Of a DNA stretch of 64,000 nt, positions 12,543-16,613 are shown one piece after another. The position numbers were made by a program, and so were the translations under genes. A model generated the notes under the pieces. That model made no database searches, was not told the DNA's origin, and saw only the letters and a list, made by a program, of their open reading frames with translations. This DNA is from an uncultured Candidatus Saccharibacteria bacterium (lineage in GTDB: Bacteria > Patescibacteriota > Doudnabacteria > UBA920), in the NCBI GenBank assembly GCA_964473815.1, contig CAYYQK010000004.1, forward strand, positions 68,493 through 132,492, in the 5' to 3' direction. The first letter of the stretch is position 1. The number at the start of each line of letters is the position of its first letter.

Positions 12543-13904
12543 ATGAATCAGCTTCCATTACTTGCCATTGTTGGGGAACCAAATGTTGGCAAGTCTACAT
12601 TGATGAATAAGATTGCTGGTCGTCGGATTGCCGTAACCTCTGTGGTTGCCGGCACCACCCGCGATCGCCAGTACGTAGACACCGTTTGGAACGGTGTTGA
12701 TTTTACTATGATCGATACGGCCGGAGTGACTTTTGGCGGATTAGGAAATACAGAGCAAGAACTTGAAGCGGCTTTGAATGAACAAGTTGATGTTGCAGCC
12801 GAAGAAGCAAATATGTTGATGCTAGTTGTCGACGGGAAAAACGCCGTAGAAACAATTGACCGCAAGGCTTTGCTGAAATTCCGGAAAATGAAGAAGCCAA
12901 TTGTGGTTGCTGTAAATAAACTTGATTCACCAAAAAACCTGGAAGCCTTTACTGCGCCGTTTTTGAAATTGGGAATAAAAAATATTTTTCCTGTTTCGAG
13001 TTTAACTGGGCGCGGAATTGGTGATTTGCTCGACTGCATTGCGACCGAACTAGGCAAAGTTAAAGTTGAAAAAGAAGAAGTACCTGTAGGTATTGCCGTG
13101 AGTATTGTGGGCAAACCAAATGTTGGCAAGTCGAGTTTACTGAATGCAATTCTGGGACAGAAGCGCGTGGTAGTATCTTCTATTCCCGGCACAACCCGCA
13201 CTTCTATCGATACTCATACTGTTATAGACGGGCAAGATTACACTTTCATCGACACCGCCGGGCTAAAACGCAAAGACCATAGACAAAAACAGCCAGATAT
13301 TTATTCAGGCTTTCAAACTTTCAAATCTATTCGCCGTAGCGACATTGTAATTTTGGTAATTGACTCGATTGAACGAATTACTAAACAAGATCAAGTCATT
13401 GCAGGTGAAATTTTAGACTTTGCAAAGGGTGCAATTATTGTAGCTAACAAGATGGACTTATTTGACGGCAGTGAACAGGAGCTACAAGATTATATTTCTT
13501 TGCACTTCCCTTTCCTGTGGTTCTCGCCTGTGTTCTTGGTGTCTGCGGAAACTGGTGAAGGTGTGAACGAAGCATTGGCTGCGATCAAACCAATTTACGA
13601 AAATCGTCTTAAAGAAATTGCGCAAGAAGATTTGGATAAAGTTTTACAGCAGACTATTAAGACAAATCCACCCAAGCGTTTGCGCGACCAACGCGATCCA
13701 AAAATTTACGCAATTTCCCAAACCGAAACCAATCCGCCGATTTTCTCTTTGCTCGTAAACAAGTCTGGTGCAATTTCTACGCAATATCGCCGCTTCCTTT
13801 TGAAGCACTTAATCAAACGCCTCGACTTGTGGGGCACGCCAATTAAATTGCAGTTGCGCGAAAAATCGCAAATCTCAGGCAAAGTCGAAAAATCTTTAAA
13901 TTAA
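12543..13904 (+). CDS. der: ribosome-biogenesis GTPase Der (EngA)
   Basis: Two tandem G-domains (GEPNVGKSTL and GKPNVGKSSL) plus KH-like C-terminus. TATAAT lies 7 nt before the ATG. Confidence 0.9.
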   Translation: MNQLPLLAIVGEPNVGKSTLMNKIAGRRIAVTSVVAGTTRDRQYVDTVWNGVDFTMIDTAGVTFGGLGNTEQELEAALNEQVDVAAEEANMLMLVVDGKNAVETIDRKALLKFRKMKKPIVVAVNKLDSPKNLEAFTAPFLKLGIKNIFPVSSLTGRGIGDLLDCIATELGKVKVEKEEVPVGIAVSIVGKPNVGKSSLLNAILGQKRVVVSSIPGTTRTSIDTHTVIDGQDYTFIDTAGLKRKDHRQKQPDIYSGFQTFKSIRRSDIVILVIDSIERITKQDQVIAGEILDFAKGAIIVANKMDLFDGSEQELQDYISLHFPFLWFSPVFLVSAETGEGVNEALAAIKPIYENRLKEIAQEDLDKVLQQTIKTNPPKRLRDQRDPKIYAISQTETNPPIFSLLVNKSGAISTQYRRFLLKHLIKRLDLWGTPIKLQLREKSQISGKVEKSLN

Positions 13905-13923
13905 ATTTGTTATAATAACCCAG

Positions 13924-14463
13924 ATGAAACTAATAGCCGGACTAGGAAATCCAGGAAAGCAATACGAACACACCCGACATAATGCCGGGTTTTTAGCTAT
14001 CGATCATTTTTTAAAGACTCATGATGCAATTACTTGCGCGAGTAAATTTAATGCGCAGATTTGTGAGTATCATGAAGGTGGTGAGAAGGTATTTTTGGTA
14101 AAGCCGCAGTCTTTTATGAATTTGTCCGGTGAAGTAATTCGTGATTTAGTAAATTTTTACAAACTTGATGCAAAAAAAGATTTACTGGTTTTACACGATG
14201 AAGTTGATTTACCTCTTGGCACTGTGCGCGATGGCTTGGGCTCGGGCCATGCGGGTCACAACGGCGTACGCAATATAATAGATGAACTTGGTACCAAAGA
14301 TTTTGCACGCGTGCGGATTGGGGTAGAAACACGCGTTGAAGGCGACGACCTCCCTACCGACGCATTCGTTCTCCAAAAATTTACAGACGAAGAATTGAAA
14401 GGATTAGAAATGGTTTTCCCTGGTGTGAACGAAGCAGTTGAAAAGTTTATAGCAGCAAAATAA
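13924..14463 (+). CDS. pth: peptidyl-tRNA hydrolase
   Basis: MKLIAGLGNPGKQYEHTRHNAGF… Pth signature. TATAAT lies 7 nt before the ATG. Confidence 0.9.
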   Translation: MKLIAGLGNPGKQYEHTRHNAGFLAIDHFLKTHDAITCASKFNAQICEYHEGGEKVFLVKPQSFMNLSGEVIRDLVNFYKLDAKKDLLVLHDEVDLPLGTVRDGLGSGHAGHNGVRNIIDELGTKDFARVRIGVETRVEGDDLPTDAFVLQKFTDEELKGLEMVFPGVNEAVEKFIAAK

Positions 14464-14492
14464 ACTGCAAAGTAAATATAGAAAAAAAAGAA

Positions 14493-14526
14493 AGGCCGCT
14501 CTGCGATATACAGGGCGGTCTTTTTA
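14493..14526. terminator. bidirectional intrinsic terminator
   Basis: ggccgctctg…cagggcggtc hairpin (two G·U pairs) flanked by an A-tract and a T-tract. Confidence 0.6.
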
Positions 14527-14549
14527 AAAAAGCGTGACACAAACTGTGC

Positions 14550-14837
14550 CTATGAGAGCCGTAAGTCTTTGAGCTTCATCATACAAAGGCCGCCACGGCG
14601 ACCGAAGTCGACATCAACGATATCTGAGGTACGGCCGTTTGTAGACGGAGCGTGAATTTCAACTATTTTGCCGGCGACCCCCTCAGAAGCACCGAAGCGT
14701 CCGTTGCTGATAACGGTCTGGCCTACTTCAAGCCAATTTTTTGGCTCAGATATATCCTGGGTGATTTTGACTATCTTGTCACTTTGATCATATCCCAAGG
14801 TTAGGCCACCAACTTCTACTTCTCGAATTTCTGACAT
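14550..14837 (-). CDS. hypothetical small protein (SH3-like/DUF1918-like pattern)
   Basis: Start MSEIREV preceded by CAGGAGGAGTGT-ATG. Pattern G-x-x-V-x-x-G…GKIVEIH…D-x-DFG loosely recalls DUF1918. The ORF-track N-terminal extension is rejected. Confidence 0.5.
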   Translation of the reverse strand: MSEIREVEVGGLTLGYDQSDKIVKITQDISEPKNWLEVGQTVISNGRFGASEGVAGKIVEIHAPSTNGRTSDIVDVDFGRRGGLCMMKLKDLRLS

Positions 14838-14867
14838 ACACTCCTCCTGATCTTTCAATACGTATGC

Positions 14868-14905
14868 AAAATAAAACCGCCACAACTTTTGTTTTGGCGG
14901 TGCTT
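14868..14905 (-). terminator. intrinsic terminator / attenuator hairpin immediately upstream of the 14550..14837 gene
   Basis: On the minus strand, accgccaaaacaaaagttgtggcggt followed by UUUUAUUUUG, about 30 nt before the SD of the downstream gene. Confidence 0.55.
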
Positions 14906-15046
14906 ATCTGCACCACCCCACCTACAAGTGAGAACCACCAGACAAACGCCTAGAAAGCTCTGCTTAACCGCTAGAAACATTGAATAGGAGGGATGATCAA
15001 TGTCTTCGCGACTTGCAAGTAGGATACTGCAGACAATCGTGAAGGC

Positions 15047-15075
15047 AGTATACACTAATTTGGAGGTTTTGTCAA
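15047..15075 (-). promoter_or_regulatory. sigma70-like promoter on the minus strand (TTGACA-17-TATACT)
   Basis: Reverse complement reads cTTGACAaaacctccaaattagtgTATACT. It drives a ~170-nt transcript ending at the 14868..14905 hairpin. Confidence 0.6.
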
Positions 15076-15101
15076 GGTAGGCTGAAAAACAAAATTCAGT
15101 A

Positions 15102-15158
15102 AAATTTGAGTAAATCTTTATCTAAACTTGAGAAAAACTTTATGTGTTCTTGAGGATG
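15102..15158 (+). repeat. copy 1 of a ~45-55 bp A-tract-phased repeat element upstream of dprA
   Basis: aaatttgagtaaatctttatctaaacttgagaaaaactttatgtgttcttgagg. Related copies at 21385..21430 (+), 56913..56967 (+), 196..250 (-) and a partial copy at 49205..49245 (-). Confidence 0.7.
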
Positions 15159-15177
15159 GCTTTGCTAGTCTGAAAGT

Positions 15178-16278
15178 ATGTATTTAAATAATCCTGACCT
15201 AGAGCCTTTCTATCTATATATACTCTCTCGCCTGCCGGTTCGGCGATTAGATATTTTTGAACATTGGCGCGCCCAGGCCGGAACATTTGAAGCCGTTTAT
15301 CTATCTAGCGAGAGACAACTTAAGGAATTAGGTTGGGGCTATGAACTAGTCTTAAAATTTCGGGAAATAAAAAATGAGTGGTCTGTGGAAAAATTGGTAA
15401 ATGTCGTAGAGAAAACCAATGTGAGCATGGTGACATATTTAGATACGGACTATCCTGCAATGCTTCGAGAAATTACTGACCCGCCGCCCGTGCTATTTTT
15501 TCGGGGGCAGTTAAATAAAAGTGAGGCATGCATTGCGATTGTTGGATCCAGAAAAATGTCTAATTATGGCTTAGGCATGATCCCAAAAATTGCTGGCCCT
15601 TTGGTCAATGCTGGAGTGACAATTGTATCAGGTCTTGCTTATGGCATTGATAGCGCAGCACATACAGAAAGCGTTAATCGACAAGCGCGAACAATAGCAG
15701 TGCTTGGAACAGGGGTAGACGAAAAAAGTATCTATCCGCGTGGGCATTTAAAACTGGCTCATCAAATTTTAGAAACAGGCGGATTACTAATTTCCGAGCA
15801 ACCACCCGGGACACCTGGGCTACCGCATCATTTTGTAGCGCGCAACCGAATTATTGCCGGTCTTTCACTGGGCGTAATTATAGTAGAATGCAAAGTCAAA
15901 AGCGGCGCGTTAATTACTGCGGACTACGCAGCGGATTTTAACAGAAATTTGTACGCTGTACCTGGCCCAGCGTATTCAGCACTCAGCGCTGGTCCTCATG
16001 AATTAATTCGTAACGGCGCAATGTTAATCACTTGCGGTGAAGATGTGTTGCAAGATATCAAACTTGATCTGGCGCAGCTTCCGGAAACTGCAAAGCCAAA
16101 ACCAAAATTCTCGGAATTAGAACAACGTGTGTTAGAATGTATGCAAGACGAGCCTCAAAGTGCTACGGAAATCATTGTTGCAACAAACGCATCAACAGAA
16201 ATTGTGATGCAAACAATTACATTGCTTGAACTACGCGGCGCGATCAAAGAAATAAATAATAAATATTATAAGACGTGA
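15178..16278 (+). CDS. dprA: DNA-processing protein DprA (Smf)
   Basis: Rossmann-like DprA core LGMIPKIAGPLVNAGVTIVSGLAYGIDSAAHTESV. Confidence 0.85.
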   Translation: MYLNNPDLEPFYLYILSRLPVRRLDIFEHWRAQAGTFEAVYLSSERQLKELGWGYELVLKFREIKNEWSVEKLVNVVEKTNVSMVTYLDTDYPAMLREITDPPPVLFFRGQLNKSEACIAIVGSRKMSNYGLGMIPKIAGPLVNAGVTIVSGLAYGIDSAAHTESVNRQARTIAVLGTGVDEKSIYPRGHLKLAHQILETGGLLISEQPPGTPGLPHHFVARNRIIAGLSLGVIIVECKVKSGALITADYAADFNRNLYAVPGPAYSALSAGPHELIRNGAMLITCGEDVLQDIKLDLAQLPETAKPKPKFSELEQRVLECMQDEPQSATEIIVATNASTEIVMQTITLLELRGAIKEINNKYYKT

Positions 16279-16613
16279 ACTATCCTTTATCTTTCCGCGA
16301 AGTCGATAAGCCTACCTTTGATCGAATAGAACGCGGCGAAAAAACTATAGAAACCCGGGCTGGAATGCCAGAATACCTAAAGTTTAAAGTCGGTGATGTT
16401 CTAGACATAAGCTGTGGGGAAAATCACATTAGCAAAACAATTGAAGAAGTCTTACGTTTTGATTCACCTGAACAACTTTTAGAAAAATTTTCTCCCGACG
16501 AAATCATGCCTGAAGGTACTACTAAGGAAGAGGCAATCGCCAAATGGAATAGCTTTCCAAATTATCCGGAACGGATTAAACATTATGGGATAATTGCGTG
16601 GCGTTTAAAGTAA
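16275..16613 (+). CDS. ASCH/PUA-like domain protein
   Basis: Small β-barrel pattern (ERGEKTIETRAG…KVGDVLDI). 4-nt overlap with dprA. Confidence 0.45.
   Translation: MNYPLSFREVDKPTFDRIERGEKTIETRAGMPEYLKFKVGDVLDISCGENHISKTIEEVLRFDSPEQLLEKFSPDEIMPEGTTKEEAIAKWNSFPNYPERIKHYGIIAWRLK

Follow-up and report, generated by a model that had tools for sequence, protein, structure and literature searches.

A probable stand-alone structured small RNA with an invariant anti-Shine-Dalgarno-like loop in Saccharibacteria

Base-pairing small RNAs (sRNAs) that act through C-rich loops include RsaE/RoxS of Firmicutes and the cia-dependent csRNAs of Streptococcus. Further examples are 6C/B11 of Actinobacteria (PMC6486639) and sX13 of Xanthomonas (PMC3771888); the C-rich loops of 6C and sX13 bind G-rich ribosome-binding site (RBS) regions without a chaperone (PMC6486639, PMC3771888). 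For Saccharibacteria, our literature searches turned up no sRNA and, with Patescibacteria included, nothing relevant on sRNAs or structured RNAs, and a preprint on the TM7x transcriptome reports no small RNAs validated in TM7x (10.1101/2022.03.25.485537). Here, analysis of a 64,000-nucleotide stretch from an uncultured Candidatus Saccharibacteria bacterium (hereafter, the window) demonstrated that the minus-strand segment 15075-14868 is very probably a complete and independent gene for a structured sRNA of about 170 nt. Similar to 6C, RsaE/RoxS, sX13, and the csRNAs, this RNA is encoded by a free-standing gene that has both a promoter and an intrinsic terminator of its own, is highly conserved within its phylum, and displays a C/U-rich hairpin-loop motif complementary to G-rich Shine-Dalgarno (SD) regions. 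It differs from all of them in showing no sequence or covariance-model similarity and no Rfam match. Moreover, the known C-rich-loop sRNAs present two or three short C-rich loops, whereas the Saccharibacteria RNA has one invariant 13-15-nt loop, carried by a 138-nt three-way junction with a 25-pair closing stem and invariant junction nucleotides, and is much larger and more constrained.

The initial annotation of the segment had placed a promoter, a leader of about 170 nt, a terminator hairpin, and an SD sequence in front of a small gene, which was read as transcription-attenuation control with an independent sRNA as the alternative. The elements of the locus are as follows:

15047..15075, minus strand: sigma-70-type promoter (-35 box TTGACA at 15075-15070, 17-nt spacer, -10 box TATACT at 15052-15047)
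14902..15039, minus strand: conserved 138-nt sRNA core, a three-way junction (covariance model R1, 151 bits, E = 1e-36)
15011..15036, minus strand: 5' strand of the closing stem P1 (inverted repeat; helix 1)
14969..15010, minus strand: P2 arm (3-bp helix CGC/GCG, internal loop with an invariant GAA, 7-9-bp helix, apical loop)
14984..14996, minus strand: apical 13-nt loop of P2, UCAUCCCUCCUAU, containing the anti-Shine-Dalgarno-like CCCUCCU
14931..14961, minus strand: variable hairpin P3, with a 4-nt apical loop that is mostly GNNU
14904..14929, minus strand: 3' strand of P1, G-rich ACUUGUAGGUGGGGUGGUGCAGAUAA, with many G-U pairs
14868..14901, minus strand: intrinsic terminator taken as the sRNA 3' end (ACCGCCA...UGGCGGU followed by UUUUAUUUU)
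14550..14837, minus strand: small open reading frame (ORF) of 95 aa with ATG at 14837 and SD AGGAGGAG at 14848-14841, outside the conserved RNA element

Both ends of the proposed transcript were recovered. The TTGACA-17-TATACT promoter matches the consensus at 11 of 12 positions and is the top promoter-like site within 13500-16500; as judged from its position, transcription would start at about 15040. The terminator consists of a hairpin and U-run at 14901-14868 with a folding energy of -13.4 kcal/mol, and was missed by a simple terminator scanner, most likely because that scanner accepts loops of up to 8 nt and this one has 12. Promoters of the form TTGACA-17-(TATACT/TATAGT/TACAAT/TATAAT/CAAAAT), scoring 10-12 of 12, lie 5' of the core at each of the 12 loci examined, and an intrinsic terminator or U-run follows the core in 11 of these 12. 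Terminator sequences are different in every locus: non-homologous terminators stand directly 3' of the core in L003, L004, L005, L006, L011, L012, L013, L014, and L015, a U-run comes immediately after P1 in L024 and L018, and L016 has a terminator-like hairpin and U-run about 70 nt downstream (judged by eye, unfolded). The terminators of the window and of L003 (-11.4 kcal/mol) are among the weaker ones. These features suggest an sRNA gene with its own promoter and its own Rho-independent terminator, kept independently of the flanking genes.

As the small downstream gene had no usable orthologs, relatives of the locus were reached through DprA synteny, and the covariance model R1 was built on the 138-nt core (14902-15039), which remains the only strong R1 copy in the window when the filters are switched off. 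R1 matched 12 further distinct Saccharibacteria/Patescibacteria sequences (L003-L006, L010-L016, and L024; 94-160 bits). Identity among the 13 core sequences ranges from 59 to 99%, and the neighboring DprA falls to 41% identity among RNA-bearing lineages. In the window and these 12 sequences, the sRNA gene always lies 3' of pth (itself a translation-quality gene) on the opposite strand and diverges from dprA or mfd, a chromosomal position that is fixed across the lineages sampled. Two possible distant homologs, each a single sequence with a weak score, are L018 (27 bits, E = 3e-5, full architecture) and L017 (15.6 bits), both with a fold z of -8.1. No RNA with the sRNA loop was found in L021-L023, a lineage with a short DprA and overlapping pth and mfd. 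A scan of metagenomes with a 19-mer of the loop returned six loci, L007 and L009 among them being chance matches, and the same scan of viral contigs returned 0 matches. BLAST searches against phage and plasmid sequences gave no match at the locus, and thus no pointer to a mobile-element origin.

At gathering thresholds, Rfam 15 detected only tRNAs in the window and no match for the sRNA; at E <= 10, the locus showed only irrelevant sub-threshold matches on terminator hairpins, and scans of the relatives likewise gave only tRNAs or meaningless sub-threshold terminator matches. SRP RNA, tmRNA, RNase P RNA, and 5S rRNA had no model match at E <= 10, and neither an SRP helix-8 motif nor a tRNA-like domain nor RNase P conserved-region sequence was seen by inspection. 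This RNA family of Saccharibacteria is previously uncatalogued.

The consensus fold is a three-way junction composed of the 25-pair closing stem, the arm with the 13-nt loop, and the variable hairpin. Across the 13 sequences, 97% of cells are paired and compensatory (double) changes occur at 22 of the 47 pairs, while none of 500 shuffles reached any of these measures and slid controls were 35-43% paired. An independent MAFFT + RNAalifold run recovered the same fold with 23 compensatory pairs. In helix 1 (P1; 25 pairs, 96.6% paired), six double changes and 11 one-sided G-U/G-C changes were counted. Helices 2 and 3 of P2 are both 100% paired, with compensatory changes in 2/3 and 6/7 pairs, respectively, and 8 of the 12 pairs of helix 4 (P3) show such changes. 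The 5' strand of P1 includes a 10-nt palindrome, ACUUGCAAGU, which is invariant only in part across the 13 homologs. The many G-U pairs of the 3' strand of P1 fix the transcribed strand, and the R1 score is about 150 bits for the minus strand versus about 20 bits for the plus strand. The junction nucleotides GAA, AAG, and UCACUU are invariant. A further small hairpin that the initial annotation had placed just before the terminator (GGUGC-AGAUAA-GCACC) does exist in the sequence, but in the conserved fold its GGUGCAGAUAA belongs to the 3' strand of P1, and GCACC is not conserved in relatives. A K-turn in the P2 internal loop was rejected by inspection (the G-A positions are unconserved), as was a pseudoknot between the loop and the G-rich strand of P1 (GGUGGG has no complementarity to CCCUCC). 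The overall constraint (15 loop nucleotides, the junction, and a sequence-conserved 25-pair stem) is greater than is usual for a simple seed-pairing sRNA, and recognition by a protein or RNP would account for it equally well or better.

An open frame of 66 codons (14855-15055) runs through this part of the window, and the probability that the region codes for its product, or is a chance mixture of promoter-like and hairpin sequences, is negligible. Its GTG start falls inside the -10 region, ahead of the position at which transcription would begin, and the 66-aa product has no Pfam match. The initial annotation had already considered this frame unlikely to be coding, a view strengthened by the stop codons that interrupt it in 10 of the 13 homologous sequences; in addition, the stem substitutions are compensatory rather than synonymous. 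The combination of promoter, core, and terminator recurs at other loci, and the 183-nt transcript folds at -74.7 kcal/mol versus -47.0 +/- 3.8 kcal/mol for shuffled sequences (z = -7.3; 0 of 200 shuffles equal it). Given this conservation and z value, chance is excluded as the source of the arrangement.

The most conserved element is the loop of P2. The 15-mer AUCAUCCCUCCUAUU (14997-14983) is invariant in all 13 sequences although identity drops to 59% and the stems covary, and UCAUCCCUCCUAU within it is unpaired in every individual fold. Its core, UCCCUCCU, also survives in L017 and L018, the candidate distant homologs, where it again occupies the apical loop of this arm. Both GGAGGG and strong SD sequences of the genomes analysed (e.g., AGGAGGAG and GGAGGAGC) are complementary to the loop; the loop is hence an unpaired C-rich hairpin-loop motif complementary to an SD-like G-rich sequence. 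The anti-Shine-Dalgarno sequence at the 3' tail of 16S rRNA is GAUCACCUCCUUU (the general sequence, not read from this genome). The loop, as GAUCAUCCCUCCUAU, shares with it a CCUCCU core of identical polarity, to which the main clade adds the preceding (G)AUCA; the loop could therefore bind partners of the 16S tail, i.e., SD sequences or tail-binding proteins. Unlike the 16S tail, which is a free 3' end, the motif is held in a closed hairpin loop, with two extra nucleotides (UC) and an extra C, and AUCA is not kept in L017 and L018.

It is therefore tempting to view the RNA as a trans-acting regulator, and our leading, still tentative reading, to which we give somewhat less than even weight as a whole, combines the stand-alone sRNA with such a pairing mechanism. 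The sRNA would be made from its near-consensus sigma-70 promoter and ended by its own intrinsic terminator. Its exposed CCCUCCU loop, which has the polarity and core sequence of the anti-Shine-Dalgarno tail of 16S rRNA, would pair in trans with the purine-rich GGAGG(G) RBS of at least one mRNA and thereby block or modulate translation initiation, in the manner of the C-rich-loop sRNAs of Gram-positive bacteria. The 25-pair stem and conserved junction would hold up the loop arm, a scaffold that would present the loop and provide stability, and which might also bind protein. Targets were sought in the window by a pattern with three mismatches and by contiguous complementarity, and duplex energies at GGAGG sites were computed both there and across some 145 kb of loci. 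The 64-kb window has no site with at least 10 contiguous complementary bases besides the antisense strand of the RNA itself, and no convincing conserved target came out of these searches; the single 11-nt RBS match in the approximately 145 kb of loci, which are partial genomes, lies in L003 in front of a gene without a homologue at the other loci.

The main rival is that the loop and junction are recognised by a protein and not by mRNA, the RNA serving as a protein-binding or RNP scaffold, which we consider possible but rather unlikely. It may imitate the 16S 3' tail GAUCACCUCCU and thereby decoy a tail-binding factor (such as Era, rRNA-maturation enzymes, or hibernation factors), or act as the RNA subunit of an unknown housekeeping particle. 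The invariant 15-nt loop, the invariant junction, and the sequence-conserved P1 exceed what seed pairing needs, the strong constitutive-type promoter and the fixed position in the sampled lineages resemble those of housekeeping RNAs, and the searches of the window and loci yielded no mRNA target. GAUCAUCCCUCCU also resembles the 16S 3' end in its general bacterial form; the window does not include the organism's own 16S rRNA. However, AUCA is lost in L017 (AAUCCCUCCUUA) and L018 (UGCCUCCCUCCUUGC), leaving the SD-complementary UCCCUCCU as the only common part, no candidate partner protein is linked to the RNA (the neighbors are pth, dprA, mfd, and variable orphans), and no known RNP RNA in Rfam is similar to it. 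A functional analogue of 6S RNA or Ms1, that is, an abundant RNA adjusting transcription globally through binding to RNA polymerase, deserves little credence. The RNA does share with 6S RNA a size of about 170-250 nt, a strong promoter, a long 5'/3' closing stem, and a single copy, and no 6S RNA was detected in the sequence searched, which comprises partial genomes; but it folds as a three-way junction with two hairpins instead of a rod with a large central bubble between two long helices, it has no 6S-type match in Rfam at E <= 10, and nothing in 6S RNA corresponds to its most conserved element, the C/U-rich hairpin loop.

A role as cis-acting 5' leader (riboswitch, T-box, or attenuator) controlling the downstream 95-aa gene is very improbable and has already been largely refuted by comparative sequence data. 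In its order of promoter, structured RNA, terminator, SD, and gene, the window does resemble attenuation leaders, and its junction equals an aptamer in complexity and conservation. The strong SD and small gene of the initial annotation (there counted as 96 aa) are present after the terminator, and in both the window and L003 a strong SD and homologous small ORF follow about 20-45 nt beyond a comparatively weak terminator, and no separate promoter is apparent; the related RNA of L017 continues into a 122-aa ORF with no terminator between. Nevertheless, a distant homologue of the small ORF is located 3' of the RNA only in L003 (30% identity over 59 aa). The gene behind the RNA is unrelated in L004, L010 (both with a PemK toxin gene), L015, and L017, and there is none in four lineages (L005, L006/L008, L012, and L013), in which the convergent pth has its 3' end right next to the terminator; L012 and L014 have a variable small ORF upstream of the RNA instead. 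The attenuation claim thus fails, as the RNA is conserved while the downstream gene is varied or absent in most loci, and the independent sRNA that had been offered as the alternative gains strong support from the separate promoters and terminators and the changing neighbors. Because the flanking small genes are mutually unrelated or absent, the sRNA is independent of them. Unlike in attenuation leaders, no conserved antiterminator/terminator alternative was seen by eye: the terminators are non-homologous, lie apart from P1, and have no alternative way of pairing with the core that recurs between loci; in each homolog, P1 forms a very stable stem of 25 pairs; and the window's small antiterminator-like hairpin (GGUGC/GCACC) is unconserved. 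Consistent with the initial view that the leader belonged to no known riboswitch class, no riboswitch matched at E <= 10, and the weak T-box resemblance suggested at that time was not borne out, as no T-box model matched even at this threshold. A search of 5.8 billion proteins with the 95-aa product returned only the protein itself, and it falls into no family of Pfam or PHROG. Considering the weaker terminators and the lack of a separate promoter in the window and L003, this ORF may be expressed by terminator read-through, as an incidental feature of the window lineage.

Saccharibacteria and other Patescibacteria represent a large share of bacterial diversity with tiny genomes, and a single-copy, strongly promoted, and covariation-supported RNA offers a concrete handle on post-transcriptional control in Saccharibacteria. 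The invariant anti-SD-like loop leads to a hypothesis that can be tested directly and, as genetic manipulation is now possible in some Saccharibacteria, deletion and loop-mutant work is feasible. In addition, covariance model R1 could improve the annotation of thousands of metagenome-assembled genomes. A broader, quite unlikely possibility is that the RNA is a housekeeping RNA widespread in Saccharibacteria that mimics the anti-SD tail of 16S rRNA. It would either buffer or sponge mRNAs with SD sequences globally, or serve a factor of ribosome biogenesis or translation as decoy or cofactor. GGAGG is rare in the window (55 occurrences on both strands, few at real start codons), which makes a global anti-SD role doubtful. 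If true, such a housekeeping mimic would account for the unchanging loop, the large conserved scaffold, the promoter strength, and the constant place beside pth, and would represent a new translation-linked RNA class in ultrasmall, genome-reduced bacteria.

On the minus strand, all the sequence elements that the initial annotation had named within 14868-15075 were confirmed to be present, and the transcription unit comprises the following features:

15075-15047, minus: promoter TTGACA-17-TATACT (11 of 12 positions matched; best such site within 13500-16500)
15036-15011 and 14929-14904, minus: arms of the closing stem, from the fold, which also form inverted repeat I1
14901-14868, minus: terminator hairpin ACCGCCA...UGGCGGU followed by UUUUAUUUU, folding at -13.4 kcal/mol
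14848-14841, minus: Shine-Dalgarno (SD) sequence AGGAGGAG of the 95-aa ORF
14550-14837, minus: 95-aa ORF with its ATG at 14837, 3' of the terminator

A simple scanner did not list the terminator, most likely on account of its 12-nt loop, which is longer than that scanner allows. Folding of 183 nt (~15042 to 14860) gave -74.7 kcal/mol versus -47.0 +/- 3.8 in dinucleotide shuffles (z = -7.3; 0 of 200 shuffles as stable), and the fold is a single long closing stem around two hairpins, followed by a separate terminator, rather than a row of small leader hairpins. The small GGUGC-AGAUAA-GCACC hairpin that had been proposed directly ahead of the terminator is present as sequence, but in both the minimum-energy and the consensus folds GGUGCAGAUAA serves as the closing stem's 3' strand. 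The 5' strand of this stem contains a perfect 10-nt palindrome, ACUUGCAAGU (15019-15028, minus strand), which is only partly invariant over 13 homologs and could in principle allow RNA self-pairing or dimerisation.

Related loci were collected in several ways. A genome scan with DprA yielded L003 and L004 (DprA ~60% identical in each), in which the same promoter and a near-identical RNA core lie upstream of dprA and divergent from it. Scanning metagenomes for the 19-nt loop sequence brought in L005, L010, and L006, to which L008 is identical, together with two chance matches. The latter (L007 5086-5104 and L009 2196-2214) match the loop-stem sequence exactly in an unrelated, GC-richer context, and were rejected as homologs: the rest of the RNA is absent, and the covariance model R1 gives 13.6 bits for the loop alone. 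R1, which describes a 138-nt core (14902-15039, minus strand), was built from six sequences, and further loci were taken via more distant DprA homologues (identity 61% down to 41%). Over the full core, R1 scored 151 bits in the window and 94-160 bits in L003-L006, L008, L010-L016, and L024. Because many pairs are G-U, the score is far higher on the minus strand (~150 bits) than on the plus strand (~20 bits), which settles the strand that is transcribed. Searched with filters off, the window has a single strong copy; the remaining matches were the antisense strand of that copy and three marginal hits. Phage and plasmid collections held nothing similar to the RNA, and the nearest relatives that the genome collection yielded carry the labels of a Patescibacteria MAG and of an uncultured Candidatus Saccharibacteria.

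The final alignment of 13 distinct sequences, the window's included (pairwise identity 59%-99%), describes a three-way junction of 47 pairs. Paired cells amounted to 97.0% versus 86.8 +/- 0.8% in shuffles and pairs changed on both sides to 22 versus 9.7 +/- 1.9, none of 500 shuffles reached any of five measures, and pairing fell to 35-43% when partners were slid by 1-3 columns. MAFFT plus RNAalifold, independent of R1, gave the same structure with 23 compensatory pairs.

Stems of the three-way junction
P1, closing stem: 25 pairs, 6 with double changes and 11 more with one-sided G-U/G-C/A-U changes
P2a (CGC/GCG): 3 pairs, 2 with double changes, 100% paired
P2b: 7 pairs, 6 with double changes, 100% paired
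P3, variable hairpin: 12 pairs, 8 with double changes

In all 13 sequences, AUCAUCCCUCCUAUU (14997-14983), which consists of the P2 apical loop (13 nt) and the A-U pair closing it, is invariant, as are the junction nucleotides GAA, AAG, and UCACUU. An overlapping 66-aa ORF was rejected as coding, since it starts inside the -10 region and is interrupted by in-frame stop codons in 10 of the 13 homologs; the RNA region is thus non-coding.

The initial annotation had favored a transcription-attenuation leader for the small gene, with an independent sRNA as the alternative. Every locus has the RNA downstream of pth and on the other strand, and its own TTGACA-17-(-10) promoter was found in all 12 loci examined (10-12 of 12 positions). 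Between promoter and core there is a variable 5' extension, giving 7-74 nt from -10 to core, the window's being the shortest. An additional 5' segment that the window lacks is present in most homologs, L003, L004 (2810-2855, minus strand), L006, L012, and L013 among them, so that the window has the shortest RNA seen; the extension contains (A/G)AUCGAAUCU in L003, L004, and L006, a partial UUGAAUCU in L013, and a small hairpin in L014, L015, and L018. An intrinsic terminator directly follows P1 in 9 of 12 loci, window included, with sequences unrelated between loci; L024 and L018 have a U-run directly after P1, and L016 has, by eye, a terminator-like hairpin and U-run ~70 nt downstream. The window and L003 have distantly related small ORFs behind the RNA (30% identity over 59 aa), L004 and L010 a PemK/MazF-type toxin (Pfam E = 1.5e-12), and L015 unrelated orphan ORFs. 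In L005, L006/L008, L012, and L013 no gene follows, the terminator directly adjoining the 3' end of pth, which is convergent. L012 and L014 have a variable small ORF upstream of the RNA instead. Inspection of the sequences by eye revealed no conserved alternative terminator-core pairing, and riboswitch and T-box models gave no match even at E <= 10. Given these varying or absent downstream genes, unrelated terminators, and lack of a shared pairing or model match, attenuation is unsupported, whereas the promoters and variable neighbors support the sRNA alternative, and the locus is very probably a bona fide stand-alone structured sRNA gene.

The window comes from a metagenomic scaffold of 135 kb, in which the RNA is flanked by der, pth, dprA, an ASCH-domain gene, and topA. 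The 95-aa protein belongs to no Pfam or PHROG family and was its own sole match among 5.8 billion proteins; since it has no relatives, leaders of orthologs could not be collected and synteny through DprA was used instead. For the small ORF of the window and of L003 no separate promoter is evident, and the terminators of these two loci rank among the weaker; terminator read-through may account for expression of the ORF, which would be a lineage-specific side effect. The sRNA's gap between pth and dprA (or mfd) is also a hot spot of unrelated lineage-specific small genes on either side of the RNA (window 14550-14837 and equivalent gaps in L003, L004/L010, L012, L014, L015, and L017), among them orphans of 95-190 aa; no obvious antitoxin gene was seen adjacent to the toxin of L004/L010. 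In L024 (1-1273), genes for a reverse transcriptase (RVT_1) and a bAvd-family protein, located a few kb upstream of pth, look like a diversity-generating-retroelement arrangement.

In two lineages, L017 and L018 (L019 and L020 being identical to the latter), DprA is of a short form and the genes are ordered pth-(RNA)-mfd-dprA-topA. L018 has a TTGACA-17-TATAAT promoter, followed by a 5' hairpin and a three-way junction with a 21-bp closing stem, a P2 arm with loop UGCCUCCCUCCUUGC, a P3 hairpin, and a U-run (fold z = -8.1; R1 end-to-end with filters off, 27.1 bits, E = 3e-5). At the same position, L017 has a promoter and a long closing stem, together with a hairpin whose loop is AAUCCCUCCUUA and an extra hairpin, and its next ORF has no preceding terminator (fold z = -8.1; R1 15.6 bits, E = 0.03). 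Since each is a single sequence that the model scores weakly, their homology to the main family is probable rather than established. In L021-L023, a third lineage with a short DprA, pth overlaps mfd, and the DNA examined showed no such RNA. In L021 and L022, the dprA-topA intergenic region contains near-identical tandem copies of a ~115-nt unit beginning AACTAAGAGAATGTTATCGTTGTCAAAAAGG (three in L021, 5885-6239; two in L022, 3397-3637).

With regard to function, the loop core CCCUCCU is complementary to GGAGGG and matches the anti-Shine-Dalgarno element of 16S rRNA in both polarity and sequence; in the folds it is unpaired and caps a covarying stem. Where SDs are strong in these genomes, they read AGGAGGAG or GGAGGAGC. 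The RNA might act in trans, its loop pairing with purine-rich ribosome-binding sites and so interfering with initiation. RsaE/RoxS and the streptococcal csRNAs likewise pair with ribosome-binding sites and interfere with initiation. Such loop pairing is also how the 6C sRNA (PMC6486639) and sX13 (PMC3771888) work. SD pairing is the best-supported mechanism, held tentatively and at somewhat less than even chances. A search for targets confirmed none: apart from the RNA's own antisense strand, the window contains no site with at least 10 contiguous bases complementary to the loop, and in 145 kb of loci only one ribosome-binding site had an 11-nt match, in L003, at a gene without a homologue in the other loci. 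GGAGG is rare in the window (55 sites on both strands of 64 kb), with a handful at plausible start codons (e.g., 12483, 14847, 39887, and 2295), and many genes, including dprA, lack a strong SD; this scarcity would favor a small target set over global action.

The main rival, which we regard as somewhat less likely than SD pairing, is that the RNA works through a protein, in a protein-binding or RNP role, one version being mimicry of the 16S 3' tail (GAUCAUCCCUCCU versus the bacterial 16S 3' end GAUCACCUCCU). The extent of invariance in loop, junction, and P1 favors this rival, whereas the absence of the AUCA part from L017 and L018 weakens it. Since the topology disagrees, a 6S-like role is unlikely.

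None of the three RNA variants has a match among the families of Rfam 15, full-text literature searches found no report of a Saccharibacteria/Patescibacteria sRNA, and a transcriptome preprint describes TM7x as having no validated small RNAs (10.1101/2022.03.25.485537). Judged from computational evidence throughout, the RNA is in kind a new family of bacterial sRNA, whose transcript ends, abundance, targets, and partners are inferred, and it is unusual in its predicted large, strongly constrained three-way-junction scaffold, its 15-nt invariant segment, and its fixed chromosomal position. If the homology of the L017 and L018 RNAs is true, the family would span a wider part of Saccharibacteria, its members having in common their architecture, their place next to pth, and the loop core UCCCUCCU.
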